This document shows positions 1-49,345 of a stretch of DNA of 64,000 nucleotides, piece after piece. The notes below the pieces were generated by a model. The model searched no databases, had not been told where the DNA came from, and saw nothing but the letters and a program-made list of their open reading frames with translations. Both the position numbers and the translations under genes were made by a program. The DNA comes from Patescibacteria group bacterium (GTDB lineage: Bacteria > Patescibacteriota > Patescibacteriia > 2-12-FULL-57-11). Location of the stretch: the NCBI GenBank assembly GCA_004297205.1, contig SCUL01000002.1, positions 462,647-526,646 of the forward strand. Direction: 5' to 3'. Numbering within the stretch: the stretch's first letter is position 1; the number at the start of each line of letters is the position of its first letter.

Positions 1-2649
1 CGAGCCGCCGCTCGCGGACGGTTGGCCGGGCGTCGAGGGCGCGGTCGTGTCGATCACGAGCGCTTTTGCGTTTCCGAGCGACCCGGCTGCTCCGGGCGAG
101 GCCAACGTGAGCGTCGCGTTGTTCAGCGCGGCGTCCTTGATGGTGCCGGAGTTGAGCGCGAGCGAGTTCGTGGCGACGTAGTCGAGGTCCGCGGAGGTGT
201 CGCCGGCAACGACGGTGTAGTTGAAGGTGAGCACGGTCGAACCGGAGCCCGAGGCATAGTCGACAGTTTCGTCCGGGGTGCCGGTCTCAAGGGTGATCTG
301 CGGGGTGCCGACGACCGTGACCGCCTCGGTGAAGGTGACGGTGACGGGGACGACCTGGCCCGTGGCGTATGAGCCGTCCGCAAGCGTCGAGGAGACGGCG
401 GAGACGGTGGGCGCGGTCGTGTCGATCACGATGTTCTTCGCGTTGCCGAGCGATCCTGCGGCGCCGGGCGAGGCCAGGGTGAGCGTTGCGTTGTTCAGCG
501 CGGCGTCCTTGATCGAACCGCCATTCAGGGCGAGGGAGTTGGTGGCCACGTAGTCGAGGTCGGTGGAGGTGTCGCCGGCAACGACGGTGTAGTTGAAGGT
601 GAGGACGGTCGAACCGGAGCCGGAGCTGTAGTTGACGGTTTCGTCGGGCGTGCCGGTCTCGAGCGTGATCTGCGGAACGCCGGTGACGGTGACCGCCTCG
701 GTGAAGGTGATGGTGACCGGGACGACCTGGCCGGTCGTGTATGAGCCGTTGGCAAGCGAGGAGGAGACGGCGGAGACGGTGGGGGCGGTCGTGTCGATCG
801 TGAAGGTGTCGGTCGTGACGGCGCCGTCGGCGGTCGTGTTCGCGTTCGAGTCCGTGGCGCGGACGTTCATGGTGTGCGAGGCGTCCGAGAGCGCCACGGC
901 AACGGTGCAGGTGAAGGGCTCGACCGCTTCGTCGAACGCGGCGTCGTCCGCGGTGCAGGCGCTCCAGCTGCCGGCAGTCCCGTCCATCTGGAATTGGACG
1001 GCAGAGACCGTGCCCACGGCTTCGGTGGCGGTGCCGGTGAGCGCGGGCGTCGAGTCGTTGTTCGGATCCGGAGACAAGGCCGTCAAAGAAATGCTCGGAG
1101 GGGTCGTATCGAACGCGCTGAACGCAATGGACACGTCCTGGAAGGTGGGCGTGTTCGCGGATTCGGAGGTGAGGGTCACCTGATACTGGACGTATCGGTG
1201 GCCGTCGGTGACGCAATTGTTCGAGGAAATGTCCGTGCCGGAGACGATGGCGTTGCAGGAAGAGAAGGCCGTGGCGCCGACCATGGTGGCGCTGTTCGAG
1301 GTGCGCGCCTTGAGGGTGGTCGTCGCGACGCCGTCCGTGTTCGCGGTCATAGTCCCCCACGCGCTCAACTGTTCCGTGTCGAAAATGGAGGAGGTCAGCG
1401 TGCCGGACGAGGCATACCGTTCTTCCTGCGCGGCGTACGTGGCGTAGGTATCGGCTTCGGATTTGTAGTCCGCGGCAATCCAGGGGGTGGAGAGGGTGGA
1501 GCTGGAGACGCGAAACTCATCTGCCTTGCCGTCAATGGCGTAAAGAGTGCTGGTGGCGCCGAATGTAAAAGTTAACCAGTTTATCGGAGAATTTTGTGTC
1601 TTCGGACCTGCCCGGAGCGTGCCATTCTTATAGAATCTTCCCTGGGTACCGTCGTATGTGTACGTAAACTTCTGCCATTGGTTGAGGGCGATGGTGCCGC
1701 CGGGCAGTTCAGCTGGAGCAAATCTGGTAGTGACATCCGTGCCCGCATAAACAGCGCCGACCGAGTCGCCGTGGAAGATGAAAGCACCCCAGCCGCCGCC
1801 GGCACTGGCAGTTATCACCGGGTTATAATTCTTGTTCGAAAGCGGATACAGCCAAAAATCAACGGCGAATGTTGTTTTTGGTCCGCTCAAACCTGCAATT
1901 TGAACGCTGTCGTCAACCCCATCATACGACTCTCCCCCGTCAATAACTCCGGACGTCGTAGGACTGGGTTCGGTCGCGGATGTTTTCGCGCCGTTGAAAC
2001 CGTTGGATGTGGAATCGATCGTGGCAGTCCCGGACGTTTCAGAAAAATGCTGGACGGTCATGTACGTGTTGTTCCACACGTTCGATGCGGACTGTGCGCT
2101 GCTCGTGGTCGTGTTGCCGTAGTAGACGTAGATGTGGTCGGTGCTCGACGATGAGGCGATCTGGGGCACCTTCACCCAGACGGTGGACGTCGAAGTCTCA
2201 TCCCACTTCTCGATTTCGTAGGGAAGGAGCGTCACGCCGTCCGAGTCGGTGAAACGGATGTCCTGGCCCGAGTTCTGCGTGTTGGCGTAGTCCACGCGCG
2301 AGGAGTTGAGCGCGACAAGGACGGGGAAATTCGTCAGGTTCTCCGCCTGCCCCGAGTTGTCGAACGTGATCTTCCGGCGATATTTCAAACTCGTGTCGTA
2401 CCAAGCGGTGGTCGTCGCGAGTGTGAGCTGGCCGGCAGAAAAAGAAACGACGTTCGAACTGGAATCGAACTTCGTCGTGTCCAACCAGCTCGTCTGGCCG
2501 GATCCCCCGGACCAGTTCGTCTGCGTCCACGGGCTCGTCGCGGCGGAAGCGCGCGGGACCAGCGAGGAAAATTGCGAGACGAGCAAAACCTGCGTGACGA
2601 GCATCACGGCTGCCAGCAGGGAGAAAATGAGGGAGTATTTCTTTGACAT
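1..2649 (-). CDS. Large secreted surface/adhesin-like protein, partial (runs off window start). Signal peptide, DUF2341/LamG-like N-terminal region, C-terminal tandem Ig-like repeats.
   Basis: Own translation of the minus strand from ATG at 2649: [22 protein letters not shown]... (signal peptide), then motifs DIRFTD...LPYEIEKWD...VWVKVP...IYVYYGN typical of DUF2341. At the other end, repeated [42 protein letters not shown] Ig-like units. No stop before position 1, so it is absent from the ORF track. High GC3. Confidence 0.6.
60..810. repeat. Two tandem ~372-375 bp DNA repeat units (~90% identical) inside the adhesin gene, each encoding one Ig-like domain.
   Basis: gttgttcagcgcggcgtccttgat occurs at 118 and 493. 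gtcgaggtc..ggaggtgtcgccggcaacgacggtgtagttgaaggtgag occurs at 181 and 553. The repeats may continue beyond the window start. Confidence 0.7.
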
Positions 2650-2740
2650 TGCCACACTTCTCGTCTTTAAATCCCTTGAATTTTACACCTTACCGAAGCA
2701 GTGTACCACTTTTGGATTTTGAAGGAAAACGCGGTGTTCA

Positions 2741-3031
2741 TCACATTTTTTTGAACGCCGTCCCGTTGATTTTTTCGAGCGTGGATATCGTGAGCGAAAC
2801 GGAGGGATTGTCCGTATTTTTCAAGGTCATGCGACCCCCGAACCTTTTTTGCAGCGGCGTGAGGAATTCGTCTCCCCAGGAAGGCGAAAACGTGCTGACG
2901 CCGGCAAAATCGACAAGGATGTCTTCCTTGCCGTTCAGGCCGTCCAACGTCGGCAAAAAAGCCGCGAGGGCCTCTCTTCCCGCCTGACGGGACGTGAGCA
3001 CGGAACCGAATTTTGCAATGAAGATGGTCAT
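2741..3031 (-). CDS. STAS-like small protein (DUF4325-like), 96 aa.
   Basis: ORF MTIFIAKFGSVLTSRQAGREALAAFL...EDILVDFAGVSTFSPSWGDEFLTPL matches the DUF4325 STAS-like pattern (vvLDFeGV..ssSF.DEf). Stop of the upstream GHKL gene lies 7 nt before its start. Lower GC (~52%). Confidence 0.55.
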   Translation of the reverse strand: MTIFIAKFGSVLTSRQAGREALAAFLPTLDGLNGKEDILVDFAGVSTFSPSWGDEFLTPLQKRFGGRMTLKNTDNPSVSLTISTLEKINGTAFKKM

Positions 3032-3038
3032 GCGCCGT

Positions 3039-3773
3039 TCAATATTGGATGAACGCCAACGAACCGCGGATCGGCACGTCGGCTTTCTTCATGAGGAATC
3101 CCGGTTTGCCCTTCCGGATTTCAAGCACCGCATCACCGGATTGGAAGGTCAGATCCGCCTCGGACTTCGCAAGCGCATCCTTCACGTATTTCAAACCGTT
3201 GCCCCGATGTTCCGGCGCCCTCCCCGTGATGAATTCGGTGAAAGCCACGCGCAACGCTTCCTCGTCGGTTTTGAGACCGGGCCGTATCCGATGCAGCGTC
3301 GCAAAAACACCGACCCCGCGATCCGCAAGGACAACGACCCGTTTCCCCGGGTCATGGGCGAAAAAGACGCCCGGGAGATCCGGCCAATTTCCCAAGTTAT
3401 GATCGAAGGAGTTGTTGCCGATTTCCCCAACGGAAGAGGAAATGAGCGACGCAATGCCCTGAAGCGCGGGGTTGGCGTCCAACTCATGCGCCATGCGCTC
3501 GTAACGCGTTTTGAATCGGTCACTCGTCGAACAATAAAAGTCGTGTTCCGGGGGGTACGACTTTTCCGCACTGACCCATTCCTGGGCAACCCGAAAGATG
3601 CCTTTGGTCTTTCTTCCCAAGTCCGACAGCGCGTAATACCGATGGCCTCCCGGGGAAACGAAGGTTGCCTTAAAGGTTCCCTCGTTATGCCAACGCCGGA
3701 GAGTCGCCACGGAAACGCCCAGATATTTGGCCGCTTTCGTGATGGAAACAAGATTTTTTGCGACTTTCCCCAT
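3039..3773 (-). CDS. MerR-type HTH fused to a GHKL (histidine-kinase-like) ATPase domain; RsbW/SpoIIAB-like serine-kinase fold.
   Basis: Start at ATG 3773 (MGKVAKNLVSITKAAKYLGVSVATLRRWHNEGTF = MerR/excisionase-type HTH). C-terminal part has GHKL boxes: EIGNNSFDHNLG (N-box), VVLADRGVGV (G1), RGNGLKYV (G2). The longer in-frame ORF to 3884 is less likely. GC ~54%. Confidence 0.6.
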   Translation of the reverse strand: MGKVAKNLVSITKAAKYLGVSVATLRRWHNEGTFKATFVSPGGHRYYALSDLGRKTKGIFRVAQEWVSAEKSYPPEHDFYCSTSDRFKTRYERMAHELDANPALQGIASLISSSVGEIGNNSFDHNLGNWPDLPGVFFAHDPGKRVVVLADRGVGVFATLHRIRPGLKTDEEALRVAFTEFITGRAPEHRGNGLKYVKDALAKSEADLTFQSGDAVLEIRKGKPGFLMKKADVPIRGSLAFIQY

Positions 3774-3812: not shown

Positions 3813-3909
3813 ACCTATACAAATCTGTACATTTTGTGAAAATCGCTCATCCTCCCGACAAAAACGAGGTTGCCACGGCGCCAAAAAACGGGCAGGATAG
3901 CGGCAGTTT

Positions 3910-3984
3910 TCGCCCCTAGCTCAACGGATAGAGCTCCGGTCTTCAGAACCAGTGATGGGAGTTCGATTCTCTCAGGGCGCACCA
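3910..3984 (+). tRNA. tRNA-like gene with a Trp-type body but anticodon UCA (loop CUUCAGA); CCA encoded. Acceptor stem non-canonical as read.
   Basis: D-arm GCTC-AACGGATA-GAGC; anticodon arm CCGGT-CTTCAGA-ACCAG (one C.A mismatch); T-arm GGGAG-TTCGATT-CTCTC; 3' AGGGCGC-A-CCA. The 3' half closely resembles E. coli tRNA-Trp (GGGAGTTCGAGTCTCTC). The 5' strand tCGCCCCta pairs imperfectly with AGGGCGC, and G37 is unusual for a UCA anticodon. Confidence 0.5.
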
Positions 3985-4020
3985 GCCCTCCAACCTCGAC
4001 TTTCTAAAAGCGAGGCGGGG

Positions 4021-4096
4021 CGGCTGCGGATCGAACCGCGCCGCATCCCCGCGCGAGCGGGGCTGTCGATGCAGCCGAACGTCCGCCCCCAGTGCA
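4021..4096 (-). other. GC-rich tRNA-like cloverleaf element (non-canonical): 7-bp acceptor-like stem enclosing three hairpins, one carrying GGTTCGATCC.
   Basis: Reverse complement GGGGCGG...CCGCCCC-G-CC forms a perfect 7-bp closing stem. Internal hairpins: GGCTG/CAGCC, CCCCGC-TCGC-GCGGGG (tetraloop, no anticodon loop), and TGCGG-[CGCGGTTCGAT]-CCGCA (11-nt loop). It is not a canonical tRNA. Confidence 0.3.
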
Positions 4097-4172
4097 TGGC
4101 GGAAGCCGGACGCGACCCGACAGCACCTATGCGGCACGGCGAGAGACGCAGCCGGCCCGCCGAGCGAACCCT

Positions 4173-4823
4173 ATGCCCCCCAAGAAAACCGTGAAACTCG
4201 ACAAGGCGCTGGCCTGCAAAGTGGTCCGCCACCCGCACCAGTTCCTGAAGGAGCTGTTGGACCTGCGCAACGAACATCCGGAGCGCGAGGCCGAGATCGA
4301 CCGCAAGATCCGCGAGACCTTCGAGTGCGAGCGCGCGCCCTTCATCCTGGACATGTCCGGTTTCTCCCGGACGGTCATCAAGCACGGCATCATCCATTAC
4401 CTGGCCATGATCCGTCGCATGGTGAACGTGGCCGTGCCGGCGATCACCGACAACAAAGGCGAGATCGTGAAGCAGGAAGCCGACAACATCTTCGCGGTTT
4501 TCGCCGATCCGACCGACGCGGTGCGCGCCGCCCAGGACGTGGTGCGCGGGCTGAACGCGCTGAACACCGTGCTGCCGGACGAGAAGGACATCTACGTGTC
4601 CATCGGCATCGGCTACGGCGACATCCTGCTCGTGCCGGGCGAAGACTTCTTCGGCAACGAGCTGAACCTTGCCTCAAAGCTCGGCGAGGACATCGCGGAG
4701 AAGGGCGAAGTGCTCCTGACGGAAGAAGCGCACGGCAAGATCACCGACTCGACCCTCAAGTTCGAGAAGGTTTCGGCCTCGATTTCCGGGGTCGGCCTCA
4801 AATATTTCCGGCTCAAGTCCTGA
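4173..4823 (+). CDS. Standalone class III adenylate/guanylate cyclase catalytic-domain protein (~216 aa).
   Basis: Motifs FILDMSGFSRTV (metal Asp), EADNIFAVFADP, VSIGIGYGDILLVPG, FFGNELNLASKLGE match the cyclase homology domain. The start at ATG 4173 (MPPKKTVKLDK) is preferred over the upstream in-frame ATG at 4092. Confidence 0.6.
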   Translation: MPPKKTVKLDKALACKVVRHPHQFLKELLDLRNEHPEREAEIDRKIRETFECERAPFILDMSGFSRTVIKHGIIHYLAMIRRMVNVAVPAITDNKGEIVKQEADNIFAVFADPTDAVRAAQDVVRGLNALNTVLPDEKDIYVSIGIGYGDILLVPGEDFFGNELNLASKLGEDIAEKGEVLLTEEAHGKITDSTLKFEKVSASISGVGLKYFRLKS

Positions 4824-4827
4824 GAAG

Positions 4828-4858
4828 TCAAAAACCGTCCCGCCTTGGCGGGACGGTT
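4828..4858. terminator. Bidirectional intrinsic terminator hairpin between the convergent cyclase and pilT genes.
   Basis: aaaaccgtcccgcc-ttgg-cgggacggtt. Confidence 0.5.
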
Positions 4859-4867
4859 GTGTGCGTA

Positions 4868-5926
4868 TCAGGCGCGTTCGCGGGGACGGGTGACCAGGGT
4901 CTGCGCGTCCTTGGCGTCGACGAGTCCTTCGGCCACGAGCCGCTTGGCGTCCTGGGCCAACGTGTACATGCCGTACTTGCCGGAGGTCTGCAGCACCGTG
5001 TCTATCTGCGCGGACTTGCCTTCGCGGATCAAGTTGGAAATGGCGGACGTATTGAACAGGACTTCGCGCACGGCGATGCGGCCGCCGCCCCGCTTCGGCA
5101 ACAGCTGCTGCGTGACGACGGCGCGCAGCACCGAGGCCAGCTGCACGCGGATCTGATTCTGCTGGTGCGGCGGGAAGGCGTCGATGATGCGTTCGATCGT
5201 CGTGGCCGCGCTGTAGGTGTGGAGTGTGGCAAAGACGAGGTGTCCGGTTTCCGCCAGGGTCAGCGTCGTGGCGATCGTTTCCAAATCACGCATTTCGCCG
5301 ATCATGACGACGTCCGGATCCTGGCGCAGGATGTGTTTCAGGCCTTCGGCGAAGCTGCGCATGTCTTCCCCGAGCTGGCGCTGACGGATCAACGCTTTGC
5401 CTTGCGGGAAGAGGAACTCGACCGGGTCCTCGAGGGTCACGATGTTGGCCGCGACGCGCTCGTTGACGAGGTTGAGGAGCGTGGCCAGCGTCGTCGATTT
5501 GCCGGAGCCGGTCGGACCGGTCACGAGAATGAGCCCGTGCGGCAGCGTGGTGAGATCGGCCACGGCTTGCGGCAAGGACAGGTCGGCGACGCTCGGAATC
5601 TTCACCGGCACGAGACGCGCGGCCATGCCGACGTTGTTCTTTTCCTGGTGGACGTTGATGCGGAAACGCGCCCCGCCCGTGGTGTAGGCGGCATCGAGCT
5701 CCAAGTTCTGTTCGAAGCGCGCGATCTGCTCCTTCGTGAGCACGCCGTACACGAGTTCCCTGACCTGCTTTGCGGTGAGCGGCACCCCTCCTCCGACCGG
5801 CACGAGCGCGCCGTCGATGCGCAACGTCGGCGGCCGACCGACCACAAGGTGCAGGTCCGAGGCCTTGGCGGTCACGGCGGCGGAGAACAGCGCGTCCATG
5901 ACATTGTTGACGACGGGTGCGGGCAT
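4868..5926 (-). CDS. pilT: Type IV pilus retraction ATPase PilT.
   Basis: Walker A GPTGSGKSTT; PilT-family motifs LRQDPDVVMIGEMRD, AETGHLVFATLHT, GGGRIAVREVL. An alternative start at M10 (5899) matches the PilT N-terminus MDALFS. Confidence 0.9.
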   Translation of the reverse strand: MPAPVVNNVMDALFSAAVTAKASDLHLVVGRPPTLRIDGALVPVGGGVPLTAKQVRELVYGVLTKEQIARFEQNLELDAAYTTGGARFRINVHQEKNNVGMAARLVPVKIPSVADLSLPQAVADLTTLPHGLILVTGPTGSGKSTTLATLLNLVNERVAANIVTLEDPVEFLFPQGKALIRQRQLGEDMRSFAEGLKHILRQDPDVVMIGEMRDLETIATTLTLAETGHLVFATLHTYSAATTIERIIDAFPPHQQNQIRVQLASVLRAVVTQQLLPKRGGGRIAVREVLFNTSAISNLIREGKSAQIDTVLQTSGKYGMYTLAQDAKRLVAEGLVDAKDAQTLVTRPRERA

Positions 5927-5948
5927 ATCCTCCCTCAGTCTACCACGT

Positions 5949-6638
5949 TCACCAACCTTTCACGGCGATGGCCTGTTCGGCGGCGGCGACCTGCGCTTCC
6001 TGTTTGCTCGTGCCTTCGCCCTTGGCGACGAGCTGGTCGCCGAGGAAAATGCCGACGACGAAATGCTTGGCGTGATCGGGGCCCGACTCTTCGAGCACCT
6101 TGTAACTCGGCGTGATGCCGAGCTGTTCCTGCGCCGCTTCCTGGAAGCGGCTCTTGGGGTCGAGATACAGCTGGTGCTCAAGAATGTAGGGCAGGCGCAC
6201 CAAGAGCTTGGCGTCGATGAAGCCGCGGCAGGCCTCCATCCCCTGGTCGAGATACAGAGCGCCGACGATGGCTTCGAACGCGTTGGCCAGAATGTACTGG
6301 CGCGCCTTGCTGCCGGCGTCCTTGGATTCGCCGCGCGAGAGATAGAGATGTTCTTCGACCTCGAGCTCGCGGGTCACCTCGGCGAGCATCACCGCGTTGA
6401 CCAGCGCCGCGCGCCAGTTGGTGAGTTCGCCCTCCGGATTGGGGTAGGTCCGGTAGAGGTATTCGGTGACGACGAGCTCGAGCACGGCATCGCCCAGGAA
6501 TTCGAGCCGCTCGTTGTGGCCGAGCGGAAACTCCGGATGCTCGTTCAGGTAGGAGCGGTGCACCACGGCTTGGCGCAGGTGCTCGATGTTTTTGAACTTC
6601 ACGCCGAGGCGTGCTTCCAACACGGAAAGGTCACTCAT
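5949..6638 (-). CDS. rnc: Ribonuclease III.
   Basis: RNase III signature [20 protein letters not shown] plus C-terminal dsRBD. TGA stop at the expected C-terminus. Confidence 0.9.
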
Positions 6639-7128
6639 GGTTCTTGGATTTAACCTCCGAATCTTCTTTTTCTTTCTTCGGCGGTTCCAGGTCGACTTTC
6701 TTCAACTGACCGGCGGTCACCCGGTCGCGGTAGATCGCCCCGAGCACGCCGTTCACGAAGCGGCCGGACGATTCGCCGCCGAAGGTCTTGGCCAGTTCGA
6801 TGGCTTCGTTGATGGCCACCTTGCTCGGCACCGTCTCCGAGTAGTGCAGCTCCGAAATGCCGAGCCGCAGGATGTTCTTGTCGACGAGCGTGATGGCTTC
6901 GAGCGGCCACTCCGGCGCGTACTTCACGATCGTCTCGTCGATCTCCTTCTGGTGCGCCAGTACGCCATCCAGAAGTTCCTGGATGAACCCCTTGTCGTTG
7001 AACTCCGGCGCGAACTCCTTGATCTGATACGACAAAACCACCGGGACGGCATCGGGCTTCTGCCCGTTGAAGTCCCATTGGTAGAGGACCTGCATGGCGA
7101 TGGTCCGCGCGAGGTGCCGATTGCTCAT
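6631..7128 (-). CDS. nusB: Transcription antitermination factor NusB.
   Basis: [14 protein letters not shown]...[15 protein letters not shown] typical of NusB. Overlaps the rnc start by 8 nt. Confidence 0.85.
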
Positions 7129-7176
7129 ATTGTGGGGCCGAAGGAACGAAAGAGCGAAAAAACCGAAAGACGAGAG

Positions 7177-7461
7177 TTACTCGTCTTTCTGAGGCGGATG
7201 GTCGTGACCTTTATGATCGTGGTCGTGATCGTGCTTGGCGGCCGCGGCTTTCTCCGCCTTCTTCAAGGCTTTGCCCGCTTCGACGAGCTTGGCCGGCAGC
7301 ACCTGGCGGCCGGCATAGGTGCCGCAGAACCGGCAGGCGATGTGGGGCAGGATCGGCTTCTTGCACTTCGGGCAGGTGCCGATCGCCATCTTCTTCAACG
7401 CAAAATGCGCTGCGCGGCGGCGTTTGTGGGAGGATGTGCGGCGATGTCCAGGAAGACCCAT
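7177..7461 (-). CDS. rpmF: 50S ribosomal protein L32 with a His/Asp-rich C-terminal extension.
   Basis: RTSSHKRRRAAHFALK...CPKCKKPILPHIACRFCGTYAGRQV (four-Cys Zn ribbon), followed by KHDHDHDHKGHDHPPQKDE. Confidence 0.8.
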   Translation of the reverse strand: MGLPGHRRTSSHKRRRAAHFALKKMAIGTCPKCKKPILPHIACRFCGTYAGRQVLPAKLVEAGKALKKAEKAAAAKHDHDHDHKGHDHPPQKDE

Positions 7462-7566
7462 AGGTGTCAGTTCCCGGCCACTATAACCGAGGTCCGTGAG
7501 CCTGGCAAGTCCCCCGGGTTGACCTGGCCCGCCTCCCGTGGAAAGGTGCCGGGCAAGGAGGTAGCG

Positions 7567-8211
7567 ATGATTCCGGCACTTGCACGGTTTCTACACCTGG
7601 CGGCGGAGGGAACCCGCAAGATCCGCCGCAGGACCCAGTACGACGAGGTTCCCGAAAACGAGCGGACACGCGTCGAAACGCATCTGCTCCAGACGGCCTG
7701 GCTCGCCGCAGCGATGATCGCCATCGAGCGCGCGCACGGAGAACCGGCCTTCGATCCGGTGCGCGTGCTGACGGCGACGGTCCTGCACGACATCGCCGAG
7801 TCGCGCATCGGGGACGTCCACTACGACGTCAAGGCCGACCCGCGCATCAGCGCCATCCTGCGCGAGATCGAAAAGGAATACGCGCACAAGATGTTCTCGC
7901 GTCTCCCGGACCAGGTCCGCGCCGCGTTCACGGACGCCTACGCAGTCGAGGACGAGCGGGGGAAGACGGCGGACGGCGACTTCTTCAACGCCGTCGAGCG
8001 CCTCGGCTACGTCTACGACACGCTGCAGTGGATCATCGACGGCAAGAAGACCTTGCGCAAGGTCTACGACAACCAGCACGAACCGCTCGTGAAGCTGATG
8101 GACCGCTTCGTCTCGGTGCGTCTGCTCTACGAGCCGATCCGGTCGTTCGTCGAGCAGCAGCTCCAGGAGTACCGCCACGAGCAGAAGATGCAGAGCATCG
8201 AGGACATGTGA
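7567..8211 (+). CDS. HD-domain phosphohydrolase (YfbR-like 5'-nucleotidase family).
   Basis: Strong SD AAGGAGG 7 nt upstream of ATG 7567. HD motif VLHDIAESRIGDV. The upstream part of the track ORF 6586..8211 is antisense to nusB/rpmF. Confidence 0.7.
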   Translation: MIPALARFLHLAAEGTRKIRRRTQYDEVPENERTRVETHLLQTAWLAAAMIAIERAHGEPAFDPVRVLTATVLHDIAESRIGDVHYDVKADPRISAILREIEKEYAHKMFSRLPDQVRAAFTDAYAVEDERGKTADGDFFNAVERLGYVYDTLQWIIDGKKTLRKVYDNQHEPLVKLMDRFVSVRLLYEPIRSFVEQQLQEYRHEQKMQSIEDM

Positions 8212-8229
8212 CGTGTCCAGGATGCGAAA

Positions 8230-8262
8230 GCGCCGCCCCCGGCAGGGAGCGGCGCCACTTTT
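8230..8262 (+). terminator. Intrinsic terminator after the HD gene.
   Basis: gcgccgcccccggcagggagcggcgc followed by a T7 run. Confidence 0.5.
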
Positions 8263-8265
8263 TTT

Positions 8266-10758
8266 CTAGATGAACGTCACCGTCGCCACACCGTCCTTTT
8301 CTTCCTTGAAGCGCATGAGACGCACGCCCTGCGTGTCGCGGCCGAGTTTGGAGACCGAGCCGAACGGGATGCGCACGACCTGCCCCTTCGAGGAGACGAC
8401 GATCAGGTCGCGCTCGTCCGAAGACGCGGAGACGTAGGCACCGACCGCTTCGCCCGTCTTCGGGCTGATGTGCATGGTCTTGATGCCGGAACCGCCGCGG
8501 CCCTGGAGTTTGTACTCCTTCAGGTTGGTGCGCTTGCCCATGCCGTTCTCGGCGATGACGAAAAGCTCCAGCATGTTCTTTTTGACCATCTCCGGGTCGA
8601 CGATGTCCATGCCGATGACGCGGTCGCCCTTCTTCTTGAGTTTGATGCCGCGCACCCCGGCGGCGGCGCGGCCCATCGGGCGCACGCTCTTTTCCGCGAA
8701 GCGGATGCTCTGGCCCTGGGCGGTCACGAGGATGACGTCGTCCTCGCCGGTCGAGGGGCGCACCCATTCCAGGATGTCCTCGTCCTTGAGTTTGATGGCG
8801 ATCAGCCCGTTCGAGCGCAGGTTCTTGAATTCCTCGATGGCCGTCTTCTTGATGTTGCCGTTCTTGGTGACCATCACCAGGTGCTTCTGCTCGGCGATGT
8901 CCGGCACCGACAGCACGGCGGACACCTTCTCCCCTGCCGCAAGCTGCAGGAAGTTCACGAGCGCCTGGCCCTTGGAGGTGCGCGAGCCCGGCGGCACGTC
9001 ATAGGCCTTGAGTCCGAAGACGCGGCCGCGCGACGTGAAGAACAGCATGTCGGCGTGCGTGTTCGTCGTGAACAGGTGCTCCACCACGTCTTCTTCCTTG
9101 GTGGTCACGCCGATCACGCCCTTGCCGCCGCGGGCCTGGGTCTTGAAGGTGTCCGGCGGCACGCGCTTCACGTAACCGTCGCGGGTGATCATGACGATGG
9201 TCGGCTCGTTCGGGATGATGTCCTCGACCGAGAACTCTTTGACGCCGTGGGCGATGATCTCCGTCTTGCGGTCGTCGCCGTACTTCTCGCGGATCTCGGC
9301 CGTTTCCTGCTTGATGACGGCGCGGATCTTCTTGGCGGAAGCGAGCAGCGCCTCGAGCTCCTTGATGACGGCGAGCTTCTCCTTGAGTTCGGTCTCGACG
9401 CGCAGGCGCTCCAGGTTGGCGAGCGCCGAGAGCTTCATCTCCAAAATGGCCACGGTCTGCGGCTCGGTCAGCTTGAACCGCTTGATGAGGTTCACTTTGG
9501 CCTCGTCCTTGTCGGCCGACTTCTTGATGGTGTCGATGATCTTGTCGATGTGGAGCAGGGCGATCTTCAAGCCCTCGAGGATGTGGGCGCGGTCGCGGGC
9601 GCGGGCCAGCTCGTAGGTGGCGCGGCGGCGGATCACCGTCTCCCGGTGCTTCACGAACTCCTCGAGCATGCTCTTCAGGTTGAGCACGCGCGGCTGCAGC
9701 CCGTCGACGAGCGCCAGCATGTTGACGTGGAAACTCGTCTGCAAATCCGTGGACAAGAACAGCTTGTTGAGCACCTTTTTGGGATAGGCGTCGCGCTTGA
9801 GTTCGATCACGATGCGCACGCCTTCCTTGCTCGATTCGTCGCGCAGGTCCTTGATGCCTTCGATGTTCTTGTCGCGCACCAGATCGGCGATCTTCTCGAT
9901 CAGGGTCGCCTTGTTCACCTGGAACGGCACTTCGGTGATGAAAATCTTGGCCGCACCGTCGTCCTCGACGATTTCCGTCTTGGCGCGCATGACGATCGAG
10001 CCGCGGCCCGTGGCGTAGGCGGCGGCGATGTCCTTGGTGCCGTAGATGATGCCGCCTGTGGGGAAATCCGGCCCCTTCACGATTTTGCAGAGGTCGGAAA
10101 TGGAAGCGTCCGGGTTGTCGAGGAGCAGCATCACGCCGTCGCAGATCTCGCGCAGGTTGTGCGGCGGGATGTTCGTGGCCATGCCGACCGCGATGCCGAC
10201 CGTGCCGTTCAAAAGCAGGCCCGGGAGCTTGGCCGGCAGCACCACCGGCTCCTTGTGCGAGCCGTCGTAGTTGGGGGCGAAGTCGACGGTCTCCTTGTCG
10301 ATGTCGAAGAGCAGCTCCTCGGCCACGCCGGCCAGCTTGGCTTCGGTGTAGCGCATGGCCGCGGCGCCGTCGCCGTCCATGGAGCCGAAGTTTCCCTGGC
10401 CGCGGATGCGCGGGTAGCGCTCGGAAAAGTACTGCGCCATGCGCACCATGGCGTCGTAGACCGACTGGTCGCCATGCGGGTGGTATTTGCCGAGCACTTC
10501 ACCGACCACGGTCGCGGACTTGCGGAACTTGGCGTTGGCGCGCAAACCCATCGTCCACATCGCGTAGAGGATGCGGCGCTGCACGGGCTTCAAACCGTCG
10601 CGGACGTCGGGGAGTGCCCGCTGCACGATCACGCTCATGGCGTAATCGAGGTAGCTCGTCTGCATTTCGTCGACGATGGCGCGGGCTTCGATTTTGCCGA
10701 TGTCGGTGCCTGCGGGCACCACGATCTCCTTGTCTTTCGGGGGCAGCTTCTTGGCCAT
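8266..10758 (-). CDS. gyrA: DNA gyrase subunit A.
   Basis: 830 aa. N-terminus [38 protein letters not shown] plus C-terminal beta-pinwheel repeats. Confidence 0.95.
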
Positions 10759-10765
10759 AGCAGGA

Positions 10766-11326
10766 TCAGCGGGGGGTGGAGGTTGCCAAAGTCGTCGTGT
10801 CCACGGCGGTGGAAAGGCGGTCGCGCATGGCGTTCAGCGCCGTGTTCAGCGAGGCCGTCGCGGCGGCGGTCGGCGTCGAGGTGGTGCCGGTGAGCGCGCT
10901 CAGACGCGCCGAGATGTCGCTGAACTGCCGGTCGAACAGGGCGCGGGCCTCGTCGGCCGCGGCATGCGTCTTGTTCGGGTCGCCGCTCGGCACGACGCGC
11001 GACCCCACGGCGAACACCCAGGCGCCGGCCACGAACACGGTCAGCACGATCGATGCGACCACCATGTTGCGCACCCGGCGGAAGTGGGTCTCCGGATCGA
11101 CGTCGTAGCCTTCATGCGTCGGGAGCCCCCCGTACGGATGCGCCGAAAGCTCCGGACGGAAATGCGGATCCTCCTCCGGCACGGCACCGACCGGGCCGGG
11201 CATCTGGTCCTCGAAGCCGAGCGGCTCGCGCTCGTGGCGGGTGCGCTCCTCCCCGGAGACCTGCTCCCCGATGAAGTCGGTCATCTCCCGGTCCGCGGCG
11301 GTTTTTTTGCTGCGGGGCGAGGCCAT
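10766..11326 (-). CDS. Hypothetical single-pass membrane protein.
   Basis: ORF with one TM helix ([20 protein letters not shown]); no recognisable domain. Confidence 0.45.
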
Positions 11327-11327
11327 A

Positions 11328-11990
11328 TCAGCTGCGGGTGAACTGGTAAAACGCCGTGCTGTCCTGCGGCAGGTCTTTGCGGGAAATCTTCAGCTTCTCG
11401 ACTTTCTCGGCCGTGCCACCGACTTCGCGGAAAAATGTGTCCGCGGAGTCGAGTTTCAACTTGATGTCGGCGTCGGCGTAATGCATCGGAATGACCACGC
11501 GCGGCTCCAACCGGTTCACGATCTTCACCGCTTCGTCGGCGCCGATGGTCGATCCCTGGCCGCCGACCGGCACGAGCAGCACGTCGATGTCCTCGAGCCG
11601 ATCCAGCTCCAGGTCCGTGAGCGGATGGCCGATGTCGCCGAGGTGCGCGATCGACAGGTCGCCGATCTCAAAACGGTACAGCGTGTTCGGTCCTTCCTTC
11701 TTGCCCTTCGGCGCGCCGTGGCCGGACGGGATGCCGTAGACGAAGACGTCCTTCACTTCGTACTCCCCCGGACCGCGGATGACGAACGGTTCGCCGCCGA
11801 CCTGTTCGGCCGCGCCGTGCCCCAGATGCTCGTGGGAAAGGGTCACGATCTGCGCCGTCAGGTTGCGCGGCAACTTCACGCCCATCTCCGGAGCGAAGGG
11901 GTCGGTAACGATGGCAACTTCGTCGGTGTCCGTCTTCGCAAGGATGCGGAAGCAGGACAAGCCGTGCCAGGTGAACGTGAGGGTGGCCAT
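11328..11990 (-). CDS. Metallo-beta-lactamase-fold hydrolase.
   Basis: SHEHLGHG metal-binding motif and MBL-like topology. Confidence 0.65.
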   Translation of the reverse strand: MATLTFTWHGLSCFRILAKTDTDEVAIVTDPFAPEMGVKLPRNLTAQIVTLSHEHLGHGAAEQVGGEPFVIRGPGEYEVKDVFVYGIPSGHGAPKGKKEGPNTLYRFEIGDLSIAHLGDIGHPLTDLELDRLEDIDVLLVPVGGQGSTIGADEAVKIVNRLEPRVVIPMHYADADIKLKLDSADTFFREVGGTAEKVEKLKISRKDLPQDSTAFYQFTRS

Positions 11991-12048
11991 ACAAAAAAGG
12001 CTGTCGGAACGCGGGTACTGTATCCCGCGGGGGCGGGAAAATCAACGG

Positions 12049-12735
12049 CTATTCGAAGAGCTCGATCACCCCGCGGTAATACTCGATTTCGCCATCGACG
12101 TCCTCCTTGGAGACGTCATGTTCGACCCCGGACCAGCCCTCCTCGAAGACTTTGACCTTGCCGCGGATTTCCGGTCCCCACTTTTCCGAACGCTCGGCCA
12201 TGGCGGCGAGCGTGGCGATCCGCCGATCAATCTCCGGCTGTTCCTTTTTATATTGCTCGATCAGGGTCATGCAGTCGCCGTTCTTCGATCCCAGGCACAT
12301 CTCCTGAATTTCCTTGGAGACGCGGTCGTGCACGGCGAGTTTCGCTTCCACGATGAGCGCGCGCTCATCCGGCGAAAAGAAAATCTCAAACTCCTGGCCG
12401 CCCTGGCGCACGTCTTCGACGCGGCCGCCCTTGGCCAGGAAGTTCAGGTATTTCTCTTTCAACCCGCGCTTTTCGAGTTCTTCCTGAAGATAGCGATCCT
12501 CATGCACCCGGCCTTCAGCGTCGTGGATGCGGGCGAAGGCTTTGCGGTACGGCCAGATCTCGCGGCCGAAGGTGACGATCATGCGCTCGATTTCCGTGAC
12601 CGGGGTGTGGGGATTCGCGGCCAGCTTCTCGACCTCGGCATGCATGGCGGCGCGGCGCTCCGCGGGAAAAAAGTGCGGCGCCTTGTCCACCGAGTGCTTC
12701 AACAGGTCGAGGGTGTAGGAATAGGGGTGTCGCAT
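12049..12735 (-). CDS. Hypothetical protein.
   Basis: 228-aa ORF with good coding composition; no domain recognised. Confidence 0.5.
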   Translation of the reverse strand: MRHPYSYTLDLLKHSVDKAPHFFPAERRAAMHAEVEKLAANPHTPVTEIERMIVTFGREIWPYRKAFARIHDAEGRVHEDRYLQEELEKRGLKEKYLNFLAKGGRVEDVRQGGQEFEIFFSPDERALIVEAKLAVHDRVSKEIQEMCLGSKNGDCMTLIEQYKKEQPEIDRRIATLAAMAERSEKWGPEIRGKVKVFEEGWSGVEHDVSKEDVDGEIEYYRGVIELFE

Positions 12736-12738
12736 AGC

Positions 12739-13332
12739 TCAATCTTCGCCGAACGGGTCGATGGCTTCTGGTCCTTCTTCTTTGGACGGTGCCGATGAGC
12801 CGCCGCCCCGCTCAGCGGGGCTACCGCGCTCGATGCGGTCGGCGCCCGAGAACGAGCCGAGCGCGCCGGAGCCGGAACGCGAGGCGTCCTGCGCCGCCTT
12901 GCCGATGGCGCCGCCGCCGACGGCGGGCGCCTGCGCGCGGGAGGCGGACGGTTTGGGCGCGCCCGGAGCGCCGGGTTTCTTGGCCAGCGCGGCGGTGATC
13001 TCCGCTTTCTTCTTTGCTTCCTCGTCCATGCGCTGCCGCATGGCGACCATCTTCCCCGCCTTGACCACCGCCGCCGACGGGCCGGTCGGCGCGTCGGCCT
13101 TCTTGAACTGCGTCTCGAACTGCCCGGCCGTGAGGTGGGTGGCTCCGGGCTTCAGGAGGCCTTTCTCCTTGAGCTTCATCATGACCTTCTTGGCCTCATA
13201 CCCTTTGAGGCTGGCACTGTGCGCCGGATTCACCCCGACCTCCTTCATGATCGACACCACCTTGCTTTGAAGATTGGAGCGCAGGTTCTGTTTGACGACC
13301 TTGGTGAGCGCCTGCCGAGAGATGTTCGCCAT
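12739..13332 (-). CDS. Hypothetical protein with a disordered Ala/Gly/Pro-rich C-terminus.
   Basis: 197-aa ORF. Contains a copy of the CCCCGCTCAGCGGGG palindrome within the coding region (~12803). Confidence 0.45.
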   Translation of the reverse strand: MANISRQALTKVVKQNLRSNLQSKVVSIMKEVGVNPAHSASLKGYEAKKVMMKLKEKGLLKPGATHLTAGQFETQFKKADAPTGPSAAVVKAGKMVAMRQRMDEEAKKKAEITAALAKKPGAPGAPKPSASRAQAPAVGGGAIGKAAQDASRSGSGALGSFSGADRIERGSPAERGGGSSAPSKEEGPEAIDPFGED

Positions 13333-13377
13333 ACGTACCTATTATATACGTCTTCCTGCGCCGCCACACCCCTCCTC

Positions 13378-13406
13378 TTGCCAATTCCCCCGGAAAGGTC
13401 TACGCT
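13378..13406 (+). promoter_or_regulatory. Putative sigma70 promoter upstream of rpsA.
   Basis: TTGCCA-17nt-TACGCT in the divergent intergenic region. Confidence 0.35.
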
Positions 13407-13473
13407 CCCGCCACATTCATCCATCCCCGGCACGGCCGGGACCCCGCCACGGCGGGGGTAATCGACGGTTTCC

Positions 13474-14643
13474 ATGCAAGACATCACCAAACAGAAGGAC
13501 GTGACCTCCGAATTCGAACGGCTGCTCGAGTCGTCCGGCATGCTCGCCATCCCCAAGGTCGGCGACGTGATCAAGGGCGCGGTCATCTCCTTTGCCAAGA
13601 ACGAAGTGCGCATCGACATTCCCGGCTTCAAGACCGGCGTGGTGCGCGGCCGCGAAATCTTTTCCGAATCCGCGGAAGTCGCCGGCATCAAGCCGGGCGA
13701 CGACGTCGAGGCCACGGTCGTGGCGCTCGAGAATGAAAACGGCGACGTCGAGCTCTCCTTCCGCTCGGCCGGACACCGCAAGGCCTGGGACGCCATCGCC
13801 GGCGCGCAGACCGCGGGCACGCCGCTTGAAGTGACCATCGTCGAAGCCAACAAGGGCGGCCTTATGGTCCGGGTCAACCACATGCTCGGCTTCCTGCCGG
13901 TCTCCCAGCTCGCGCCGGAGCACTATCCGCGCGTGGCGGGCGGCGACAAGTCCAAGATCCTCGAGAAGCTCAAGTCGTTCGTCGGCCAGAGCCTCAAGGT
14001 GAAGGTGCTGGACGCGAACGAAGGTGCCGAGAAGCTGATCGTCTCGGAGAAGGCCGTCTGGGAAGACGAACAGGCCGCGGTCATCGCCAAGTACAAGATC
14101 GGCGACACCGTGGAGGGCGCGGTCACCGCGCTGACCGACTTCGGCGCGTTCGTGAAATTCGACGCGCTCGAGGGCCTGGTCCACATCTCGGAAATCGCCT
14201 GGCAGCGCATCGACCATCCGCGCGACGTGCTCACGGTCGGCCAAGAAGTGAAGTGCCAGGTGATCGGCATCCAGGGTTCCAAGATCTTCCTCTCCATGAA
14301 GAAGCTCATCGAAGACCCCTGGAAGAACGTGGGCGACAAGTACCACATCGGCCAAATCGTCCGCGGCAAGATCATCAAGGCCAACCCGTTCGGCTTCTTC
14401 GTGGAGCTCGACCCCGACATCCATGGTCTGGCGCACGTGAGCGAGCTCTCGCACACGCCGATCAAGGATCCGACCGACGTGGCCAAGGTCGGCGAGGACA
14501 AGACCTTCAAGATCGTGTCCATCGAACCGGACAGCCACCGGCTCGGCCTCTCGCTGAAGGCGCTCGAAGAAGCGCCGAAGGCCGAAGAGAAGAAAGAGGA
14601 AGACAAAAAGGAAGAAAAACCCGCCGAAGAAAAAACGGCCTAA
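13474..14643 (+). CDS. rpsA: 30S ribosomal protein S1 (short form with four S1 domains).
   Basis: Four S1 repeats ([10 protein letters not shown]..., [10 protein letters not shown]..., [10 protein letters not shown]..., GQIVRGKII...), acidic/Lys-rich tail. Confidence 0.85.
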
Positions 14644-14735
14644 CCGGCCGGCACGAAGGCGGTCCCTCCGGACCGCCTTTTGCGTTGCTGATTGCCAGAG
14701 GACCCCGAGACCGCCTATACTTTGAGTCGTACGCT

Positions 14736-16664
<1,929 letters not shown>

Positions 16665-47179: not shown

Positions 47180-47370
47180 TACGGCCACAAAACAAGAGCC
47201 TTTTCGGGCTCTTTGTGTGGTCATGAACAACTGAAGACCATTGCCCAATAGTCAGCCATGGAGGCATCGTGCTTTTCATGGTTGCAACGTCTGTCCGAAG
47301 AGTCGCAAGACTCTTCAATTCAACAGATCTCCAAATAGAGCTATCAGCTCTCGAAACCGGCTTGCCGGTT

Positions 47371-48866
<1,496 letters not shown>

Positions 48867-49140
48867 CTAGGGAGTGTTATTCTACTCTTCGGGGTATGAA
48901 TCATTTCCGTCGAACTCGCTGCGCAGTGCAGCGGGTATAGGACGTTGCAACCATAAAGGGCATGAACAAACGCCGGCCGAAAGGCCGGCGTTTTGATTGG
49001 CCAAGGCCCTTGCCAGGAATCGCCTTTTCCCCTACAGTATCCGGGCAAAACAGACATACGGCGTGGATCGTCGCTTCGCTCCGATGCACGCCCGTCGTCC
49101 GTTCGGCTTCCGAAAGCGAGCTTTCGAAGCCTCACTCCCT

Positions 49141-49217
49141 AGGGCGTGTAGCTCAGTTGGTTAGAGCGTTACACTGATAATGTAAAGGTCGATGGTTCGA
49201 CTCCATCCACGCCCACC
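49141..49217 (+). tRNA. tRNA-Ile (anticodon GAU) in the 16S-downstream spacer; CCA encoded.
   Basis: GGGCGTGTAGCTCAGTTGGTTAGAGCG, anticodon loop CTGATAA, T-arm GGTTCGACTCC, 3' end CACGCCCACCA. Followed by the hairpin atcccccg-taaata-cgggggat (49218-49245). Confidence 0.85.
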
Positions 49218-49345
49218 AAAATCCCCCGTAAATACGGGGGATTTTGAATAGAGATGAATGGTTTCCCGCAAATCGCTGACCTCTGGTTGCCCTGGCTATG
49301 CCCCACTGTGATCAACACTGAGATGTTCTGAGCAGACTGATCGAA

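Follow-up and report, generated by a model that had tools for sequence, protein, structure and literature searches.

In recoded bacteria UGA is decoded by tRNAs with a UCA anticodon, namely the tRNA-Trp(UCA) of code 4 and the tRNA-Gly(UCA) of code 25, the latter found in the Gracilibacteria/Absconditabacteria, which are Patescibacteria relatives. Bacterial tRNA-Sec has an 8/5 arrangement of the acceptor and T stems, a long extra arm and an extended D stem. The tRNA-Arg(UCG) is needed only if the tRNAs with ICG and CCG anticodons are absent, and many bacteria live without it. It is also usual for tRNAs with A36 to carry a modified A37. As for amino acid identity, the arginine set consists of A20, C35 and A or G at position 73, with G or U at position 36 as a further determinant, whereas bacterial tRNA-Trp is determined by G73 and the CCA anticodon (PMC9976931). 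Human tRNA-Arg(UCG) variants with G36A, either edited at the anticodon or natural suppressors, were shown to read UGA with arginine, and one human isodecoder with G36A was silent (PMC12361112). In addition, the methyltransferase TrmD requires G36-G37 in its substrate (PMC5372744).

We examined a tRNA gene with a UCA anticodon in a stretch of 64,000 nucleotides (here referred to as the window, ~64% G+C) from a Patescibacteria (candidate phyla radiation) genome. ARAGORN detected three tRNAs in the window, one of which is a 75-nt tRNA with anticodon tca at 3910-3984 on the + strand, labelled 'SeC' because of the anticodon alone. Rfam (RF00005) matched 3910-3981 in the same register with 42.1 bits (gathering score 29), compared to 66.9 bits for the tRNA-Glu and 78.2 bits for the tRNA-Ile in the window. 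The sequence reads UCGCCCC-UA-GCUC-AACGGAUA-GAGC-U-CCGGU-CUUCAGA-ACCAG-UGAU-GGGAG-UUCGAUU-CUCUC-AGGGCGC-A-CCA, with the anticodon loop C32-U33-U34-C35-A36-G37-A38 at 3941-3947, the anticodon TCA at 3943-3945, the discriminator A at 3981 and the CCA at 3982-3984. A36 (3945) is G in all orthologues, and G37 (3946) was retained from a parent reading CGN codons. Thus, the UCA anticodon, the loop CUUCAGA, G37 and the encoded CCA of the original prediction are confirmed, and both tools agreed on calling a tRNA and on its anticodon register.

Of the 21 pairs, 18 are standard, and the other three were marked as non-standard in the Rfam alignment. U1 (3910) is unpaired with C72 (3980), where all orthologues have G1-C72, and C7 (3916) is unpaired with A66 (3974), where the orthologues have U-A or C-G; between these two, five G-C pairs of the acceptor stem are left. 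The acceptor stem had already been described as imperfect, to which we add a third mismatch in the anticodon stem, between C28 (3937) and A42 (3951), where the orthologues have U-A, C-G or G-C. All the universally conserved tertiary nucleotides (U8, A14, G18-G19, A21, U33, G53-T54-T55-C56 and A58) are kept.

The sequence of the UCA tRNA, including the five positions at which it varies from the L002 orthologue, was reproduced exactly by two separately assembled Logan contigs of run SRR8426588, one covering the 5′ flank up to 3975 (L009) and the other from 3955 onwards (L008). This excludes an error of consensus or assembly. Both contigs stop within the T-arm and overlap by just 21 nt (3955-3975), which would fit a branch of the assembly graph caused by co-occurring relatives that share an identical 3′ half of the tRNA.

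Using PilT and the cyclase-like protein encoded next to the tRNA as anchors, we fetched related contigs from Hainich groundwater in ENA (L002/L003), from GCA_964648865.1 (L004), GCA_964362095.1 (L005) and GCA_004299275.1 (L012/L013), as well as L010 and L015. Positions 4173-16574 of the window are collinear with L002 (~85% nucleotide identity) and L004 (~80%), in the order cyclase-like gene, pilT, rnc, nusB, rpmF, gyrA and on to ftsH. A region of ~715 bp between rpmF and gyrA (7516-8230), encoding an HD-domain YfbR-like 5′-deoxynucleotidase (Pfam E=6e-16), has no counterpart in L002, L003, L004 or L005 and appears to be a lineage-specific insertion in the otherwise collinear block.

An intact tRNA-Arg(UCG) adjoins the cyclase-like gene in five distinct relatives, represented by L002/L003, L004, L005/L010, L012/L013 and L015, in four of them at the same place and in the same orientation. 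In L002, L003, L004, L005 and L015, tRNA-Arg(tcg) immediately precedes the cyclase-like gene on the same strand; in L012 the tRNA-Arg(UCG) is inverted beside the gene, and L010 contains its 3′ two-thirds. The UCA tRNA shares 92.7% identity over 82 nt with the L002 orthologue, and the homology with the relatives reaches ~45 nt upstream of the tRNA, through a shared promoter-like box at 3870-3898 on the + strand (TTGCCA-17 nt-CAGGAT; TTGCCA-17 nt-CAATAT in the relatives, as seen in the alignment and the L015 sequence), and ends just upstream of it. The consensus promoter scan made no call for this box. The UCA tRNA is the orthologue, in this lineage, of tRNA-Arg(UCG), the isoacceptor for CGA and CGG. 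Relatives with a CCA anticodon, which the original prediction had named as evidence against itself, did not appear; the relatives have UCG.

At its site next to the cyclase-like gene, tRNA-Arg(UCG) is evolutionarily labile, being inverted in L012 and missing upstream of the gene in L011 and L014. In L005, another gene resembling tRNA-Arg(UCG) but with A37 (GCTCCCGTCGTTCAACGGATAGGACAACAGCCTTCGAAGCT) begins 300 bp from the first (4068-4108) and is cut by the contig end; at least one relative thus has a paralogous UCG tRNA. The neighbouring, divergent tRNA-Lys(CUU) gene was found intact in L002 (11925-12000) and L015 (1665-1740), absent from the window, and degenerate in two relatives. In L005 (3964-4036, +) its acceptor strands, GCAGCGG/CCGACCC, have three mismatches (51.5 bits), and in L004 (13663-13735, −) it has A3·G70 and the T-loop UGCGAUC (45.4 bits). 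Both degenerate copies were missed by ARAGORN. Redundant isoacceptor genes seem to be repeatedly eroding in this clade.

In the four full-length orthologues that we analysed, all 21 pairs are standard and the loop reads CUUCGGA. Compensatory double changes were found among them at 7:66 (U-A/C-G), 28:42 (U-A/C-G/G-C), 29:41, 31:39 and 52:62, which is the signature of a tRNA under selection. They scored 65.7–69.7 bits in Rfam, so the UCA tRNA, at 42.1 bits, has dropped by ~25 bits. It departs from L002 by five substitutions confined to the 5′ half (G1T, T7C, A26T, T28C and G36A), of which three break pairs, and over its 3′ 39 nt it matches L002, L005 and L015 without a difference. G1T and G36A were found only in the window copy. 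The comparison with relatives that had been proposed thus did reveal changes unique to this lineage, although the ancestral anticodon was UCG and not the supposed CCA.

As the minimum free energy (MFE) fold misses the exact cloverleaf even in the intact orthologues, we compared the energies of the cloverleaf itself (ViennaRNA), which are only indicative since they were computed for unmodified RNA without tertiary contacts. The cloverleaf of the UCA tRNA has −18.2 kcal/mol versus −27.2 to −34.6 kcal/mol in the orthologues (9–16 kcal/mol weaker), and lies 6.8 kcal/mol above the MFE fold versus 2.1–2.9 kcal/mol; its predicted occupancy is ~1000-fold lower. C28 is the largest single contributor to the destabilisation, and repairing it alone restores most of the 6.8 kcal/mol gap. 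The C·A mismatches are mild. Since TrmD needs G36-G37, the G37 following A36 is probably unmethylated.

At 4-fold degenerate sites, change on the window lineage was ~0.10 per site, from which ~7.6 neutral changes are expected in 75 nt, while 2–5 lineage-specific changes, depending on the tree, were observed in the tRNA, which is at or below the neutral expectation. The chance of zero change in the 3′ 39 nt under neutrality is P ~0.02. These few changes and the unchanged 3′ part indicate that the relaxation of constraint is recent or partial. Alternatively, part of the tRNA sequence may still be constrained as the leader of the mRNA of the cyclase-like gene.

Regarding the amino acid, the D-loop AACGGAUA sets an A after G18-G19 (A20), C35 is at 3944 and A73 at 3981, and so the UCA tRNA has the arginine set, except that A36 (3945) stands where arginine tRNAs need G or U; all orthologues have G36. 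When we compared the residues that align with CGG and CGA codons in this clade, 127 of 176 were Arg, Lys came next, and Trp never occurred. It follows that the UCG tRNA of the clade is an ordinary arginine tRNA. The original prediction had called the gene Trp-type, and this was right as far as raw similarity goes: the best E. coli blastn match is tRNA-Trp, with 81–83% identity limited to positions 8–64. However, this match is not diagnostic, since the acceptor stem and the discriminator base fall outside the aligned region, and the E. coli comparison could not have returned Arg, as only the tRNA-Trp of E. coli passes the threshold. As an identity, Trp fails, because the discriminator is A73 rather than G73, the body is not that of a tRNA-Trp and the syntenic orthologues are tRNA-Arg(UCG). 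The annotated matches to the UCA tRNA in the phage collection were likewise all tRNA-Arg. Nor does it resemble tRNA-Sec: its acceptor and T stems follow a 7/5 arrangement, the D stem is 4 bp and the variable region 4 nt long, and among the models of the Rfam clan the general tRNA model fits 3910-3981 best.

UGA is a stop in this genome, as had been proposed. Ten syntenic genes have no internal stops, and 7 of the 10 end with TGA at the residue where their orthologues end with TAA, TAG or TGA; rnc, for example, ends with ...VKGW followed by TGA in the window, TAA in L002 and TAG in L004. In a crude gene set of the window, TGA accounts for 30 of 53 stops; the relatives use it no more often, and it is not avoided. 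Readthrough of UGA would often append 70–150 residues, and back-up stops are not enriched after TGA (the next in-frame stop is at a median of 22 codons after TGA versus 29 after TAA/TAG, p=0.40). Six-frame reading of 1300-3100 revealed no gene interrupted by TGA beside the tRNA, and UGA was not found at the conserved sense positions where codes 4 and 25, or a hypothetical code with UGA as Arg, would place it. From the conserved TGA ends, the absence of in-frame TGA and the lack of excess back-up stops, we conclude that the code is unchanged and that nothing points to efficient suppression over a long time. Of 173 arginine codons in the ten genes, 28 are CGG and just one is CGA, the codon that only the UCG tRNA would specially serve.

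To see how rare such a tRNA is, we scanned 185,579 species genomes, 241 million metagenome records and 2.9 million viral contigs for a pattern combining the Arg-type D-arm, the loop CUUCAGA (CUUCARA in the genome scan) and the T-loop. No match was found in the viral contigs. The species genomes, for which the pattern had an extra leading C and was narrower, gave one match, in an unrelated Microbacteriaceae fragment with no ARAGORN call, and the metagenome records gave one other case, a degenerate partial copy. In the latter (WNFX01000338.1 and WNGE01086603.1; L006:7233-7399 and L007:1368-1534), an intact tRNA-Arg(UCG) of 66.8 bits is followed 17 nt downstream by a near-duplicate of 46.3 bits, with the loop CUUCAGA and a largely unpaired acceptor stem. 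The host genome is unrelated (~50–60% G+C), and the copy adjoins a 47–49% G+C stretch with a small ORF; it looks like a partial tRNA duplication, perhaps at the junction of an island.

Within the window, there was no second copy of the 3′ half of the UCA tRNA with up to 3 mismatches, nor of either half, and no att-like repeat, and the visible 3.9-kb left flank contains no integrase. An integration-site duplicate of the tRNA was considered and excluded by the absence of a second copy in the window. The UCA tRNA is chromosomal, not phage-borne, and the proposal of an opal suppressor carried by a phage or mobile element finds no support, given the conserved promoter-like box, the right-hand synteny, the lack of a viral UCA match and the fact that the similar annotated phage tRNAs are all tRNA-Arg.

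The left flank, though, is not syntenic. It consists of a two-gene module on the − strand (2741-3773), in which a protein with a MerR/excisionase-like helix-turn-helix (HTH) N-terminus and a 190-aa C-terminal part without a family (3039-3773) is followed by a DUF4325/STAS-like protein (2741-3031), whose gene ends with tandem TGA TGA. A near-consensus promoter (TTGACA-17-TATACT) precedes the module at 3812-3784. The module is absent from the syntenic relatives, which have tRNA-Lys(CUU) or an AIRS-domain gene instead, and searches of its genes for defence or mobile-element annotation gave only weak HTH-type matches. A long TGA-free ORF on the − strand, with the look of a secreted repeat protein by inspection, runs off the window start.

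On the other side, a G+C-rich spacer of 188 nt (3985-4172, +; 17–90 nt in the relatives) separates the tRNA from the cyclase-like gene. It has strong hairpins, such as CCCCGC-GAGC-GCGGGG on the + strand, with no Rfam family and no repeat elsewhere in the window; a GGTTCGATCC-like hairpin on its minus strand was tried as a tRNA relic and rejected, having only noise-level Rfam matches. The cyclase-like gene (4173-4823, +) encodes a 216-aa protein identical to TAK05058.1 in NCBI and is the conserved neighbour of tRNA-Arg(UCG) in the clade, usually lying directly downstream of it. The protein is a stand-alone class III cyclase-like protein that is 88–93% conserved over about a dozen related lineages; PADLOC matched it weakly to Pycsar cyclases (E=1.6e-5), and its Pfam match to Guanylate_cyc stayed below threshold. 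Co-transcription of the tRNA and the cyclase-like gene is possible. Far from this locus, 16S rRNA is followed by tRNA-Ile(GAU) at 47370-49218, and Rfam called no 23S rRNA in the remaining 15 kb, hence the rRNA operon appears unlinked or interrupted.

It is probable, though by no means certain, that the UCA tRNA is a recently disabled orthologue of tRNA-Arg(UCG). G36A, found in this genome alone, would have turned the UCG anticodon into UCA, and with the stem defects U1·C72, C7·A66 and C28·A42 added, the tRNA would no longer serve arginine codons, nor would it read UGA to any significant extent. Of the decay and suppressor branches offered originally, decay is the better supported, with tRNA-Arg(UCG) as the parent in place of tRNA-Trp. 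The genome could bear this loss, with CGA almost unused and CGG presumably read by another Arg tRNA; our tRNA inventory covers 64 kb of a genome of ~856 kb, in which no other CGG decoder and no second UCG copy was found. The locus is probably still transcribed, as it retains the promoter-like box and is directly followed by the conserved cyclase-like gene, and continued transcription could explain why the tRNA-like sequence has not eroded further.

Unlikely, yet the main rival, is a live, weak opal suppressor, which would be transcribed, processed and charged by ArgRS through A20, C35 and A73 and would occasionally insert arginine at UGA, so that the many genes ending with UGA would be read through at a low level; its stem mismatches may then have been selected to attenuate a toxic gain of function brought by G36A. 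The retention of these three nucleotides, of the CCA, the tertiary nucleotides and the promoter-like box, as well as the unchanged 3′ half, would suit such a tRNA, and human tRNA-Arg(UCG) variants with the same G36A change do insert Arg at UGA (PMC12361112). However, a suppressor would have to work with three non-standard pairs, 1:72 among them, the ~25-bit drop in Rfam and the ~1000-fold lower occupancy, with A36 in place of the position-36 arginine determinant, and with a G37 that lacks the context needed by TrmD (PMC5372744) and stands where a modified A37 is usual after A36. It would also act in a genome where TGA is the commonest stop, not avoided relative to the relatives and without an excess of back-up stops, and the scans of species genomes, metagenomes and viruses found no other lineage that keeps such a tRNA. 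We attach a low probability to the related idea that a nearly unemployed tRNA-Arg(UCG) switched to UCA and, still charged with Arg, decodes UGA as Arg at a low level, either as an ambiguous intermediate on the way to a code with UGA as Arg or as a suppressor attenuated by its mismatches. To our knowledge, such a code has never been observed.

A recombinant origin, compatible with either functional reading, is doubtful. The 5′ half would derive from an L004-like allele and the 3′ half from an L002-like one, joined between positions 28 and 42, so that both C·A mismatches would arise at once, and the same event perhaps replaced the left flank. Indeed, at all sites where L002 and L004 differ, the window agrees with L004 at 7, 26 and 28 and with L002 at 42, 44, 52, 62 and 66, synteny breaks just upstream of the tRNA, and quartets give contradictory site support (83, 56 and 44) for the window, L002 and L005, which lie at almost the same distance from one another. 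There is no clean single crossover, though, because the promoter-like box is homologous in all relatives, which places the breakpoint of the synteny outside the tRNA, and the 3′ trailer is L004-like rather than L002-like. Two T-to-C changes in a higher-G+C genome, or retained C·A intermediates of U-A/C-G switches, also fit the mismatches, and neither a second copy nor an att-like repeat was found in the window. It is very improbable that errors in sequencing or assembly produced the sequence, or that it encodes a selenocysteine tRNA: the 'tRNA-SeC' printed by ARAGORN and the source, a metagenome-assembled genome, could hint at this, but the SRR8426588 Logan contigs agree at all five variant positions and the architecture is that of a general tRNA. 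Scarcely tenable is a tRNA derived from tRNA-Trp, whether a phage or mobile opal suppressor or a decaying relic, which could draw on the E. coli match and on the excisionase/MerR-like HTH gene in the non-syntenic left flank, and against which stand the tRNA-Arg(UCG) orthologues, A73 and A20 instead of the bacterial Trp G73 (PMC9976931), the tRNA-Arg matches in phages and the missing viral UCA form.

The case documents the turnover of redundant isoacceptors in the reduced genomes of Patescibacteria, Arg-UCG here and Lys-CUU in two relatives. It also carries a lesson for annotation: a tRNA with a UCA anticodon that is labelled 'SeC' or 'suppressor', or that resembles the E. coli tRNA-Trp, can turn out to be an orthologue of tRNA-Arg(UCG) that has mutated, and the parentage of such an odd tRNA is quickly settled by synteny across relatives. 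Should the tRNA prove active, it would represent a rare natural opal suppressor that inserts arginine, in a genome with UGA at the end of more than half of its genes, and would bear on the beginnings of stop-codon reassignment.

The tRNA-Arg(UCG) of the relatives remains the nearest known system, sharing with the UCA tRNA the locus, the promoter-like box, A20 in the D-loop, C35, G37, A73, the T-arm and the encoded CCA, and differing from it by G36, standard pairs at 1:72, 7:66 and 28:42 and a score higher by ~25 bits. The degenerate copy in L006/L007 resembles it in the Arg-type D-arm, the loop CUUCAGA and the low Rfam score, but is an extra tandem partial copy in an unrelated genome, with an intact UCG gene beside it. 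The human G36A variants underwent the same UCG-to-UCA change with Arg identity kept and UGA read (PMC12361112); those, however, are eukaryotic tRNAs, otherwise intact and with measured activity, whereas the one described here is bacterial, has three stem mismatches and is known from its sequence. As for the UCA tRNAs of codes 4 and 25, they share the anticodon, but they are intact and their genomes use in-frame UGA as sense, while in the window UGA is where genes stop, at conserved C-termini, and the UCA tRNA has a damaged body of Arg type, with an anticodon that now matches the commonest stop codon of its own genome.
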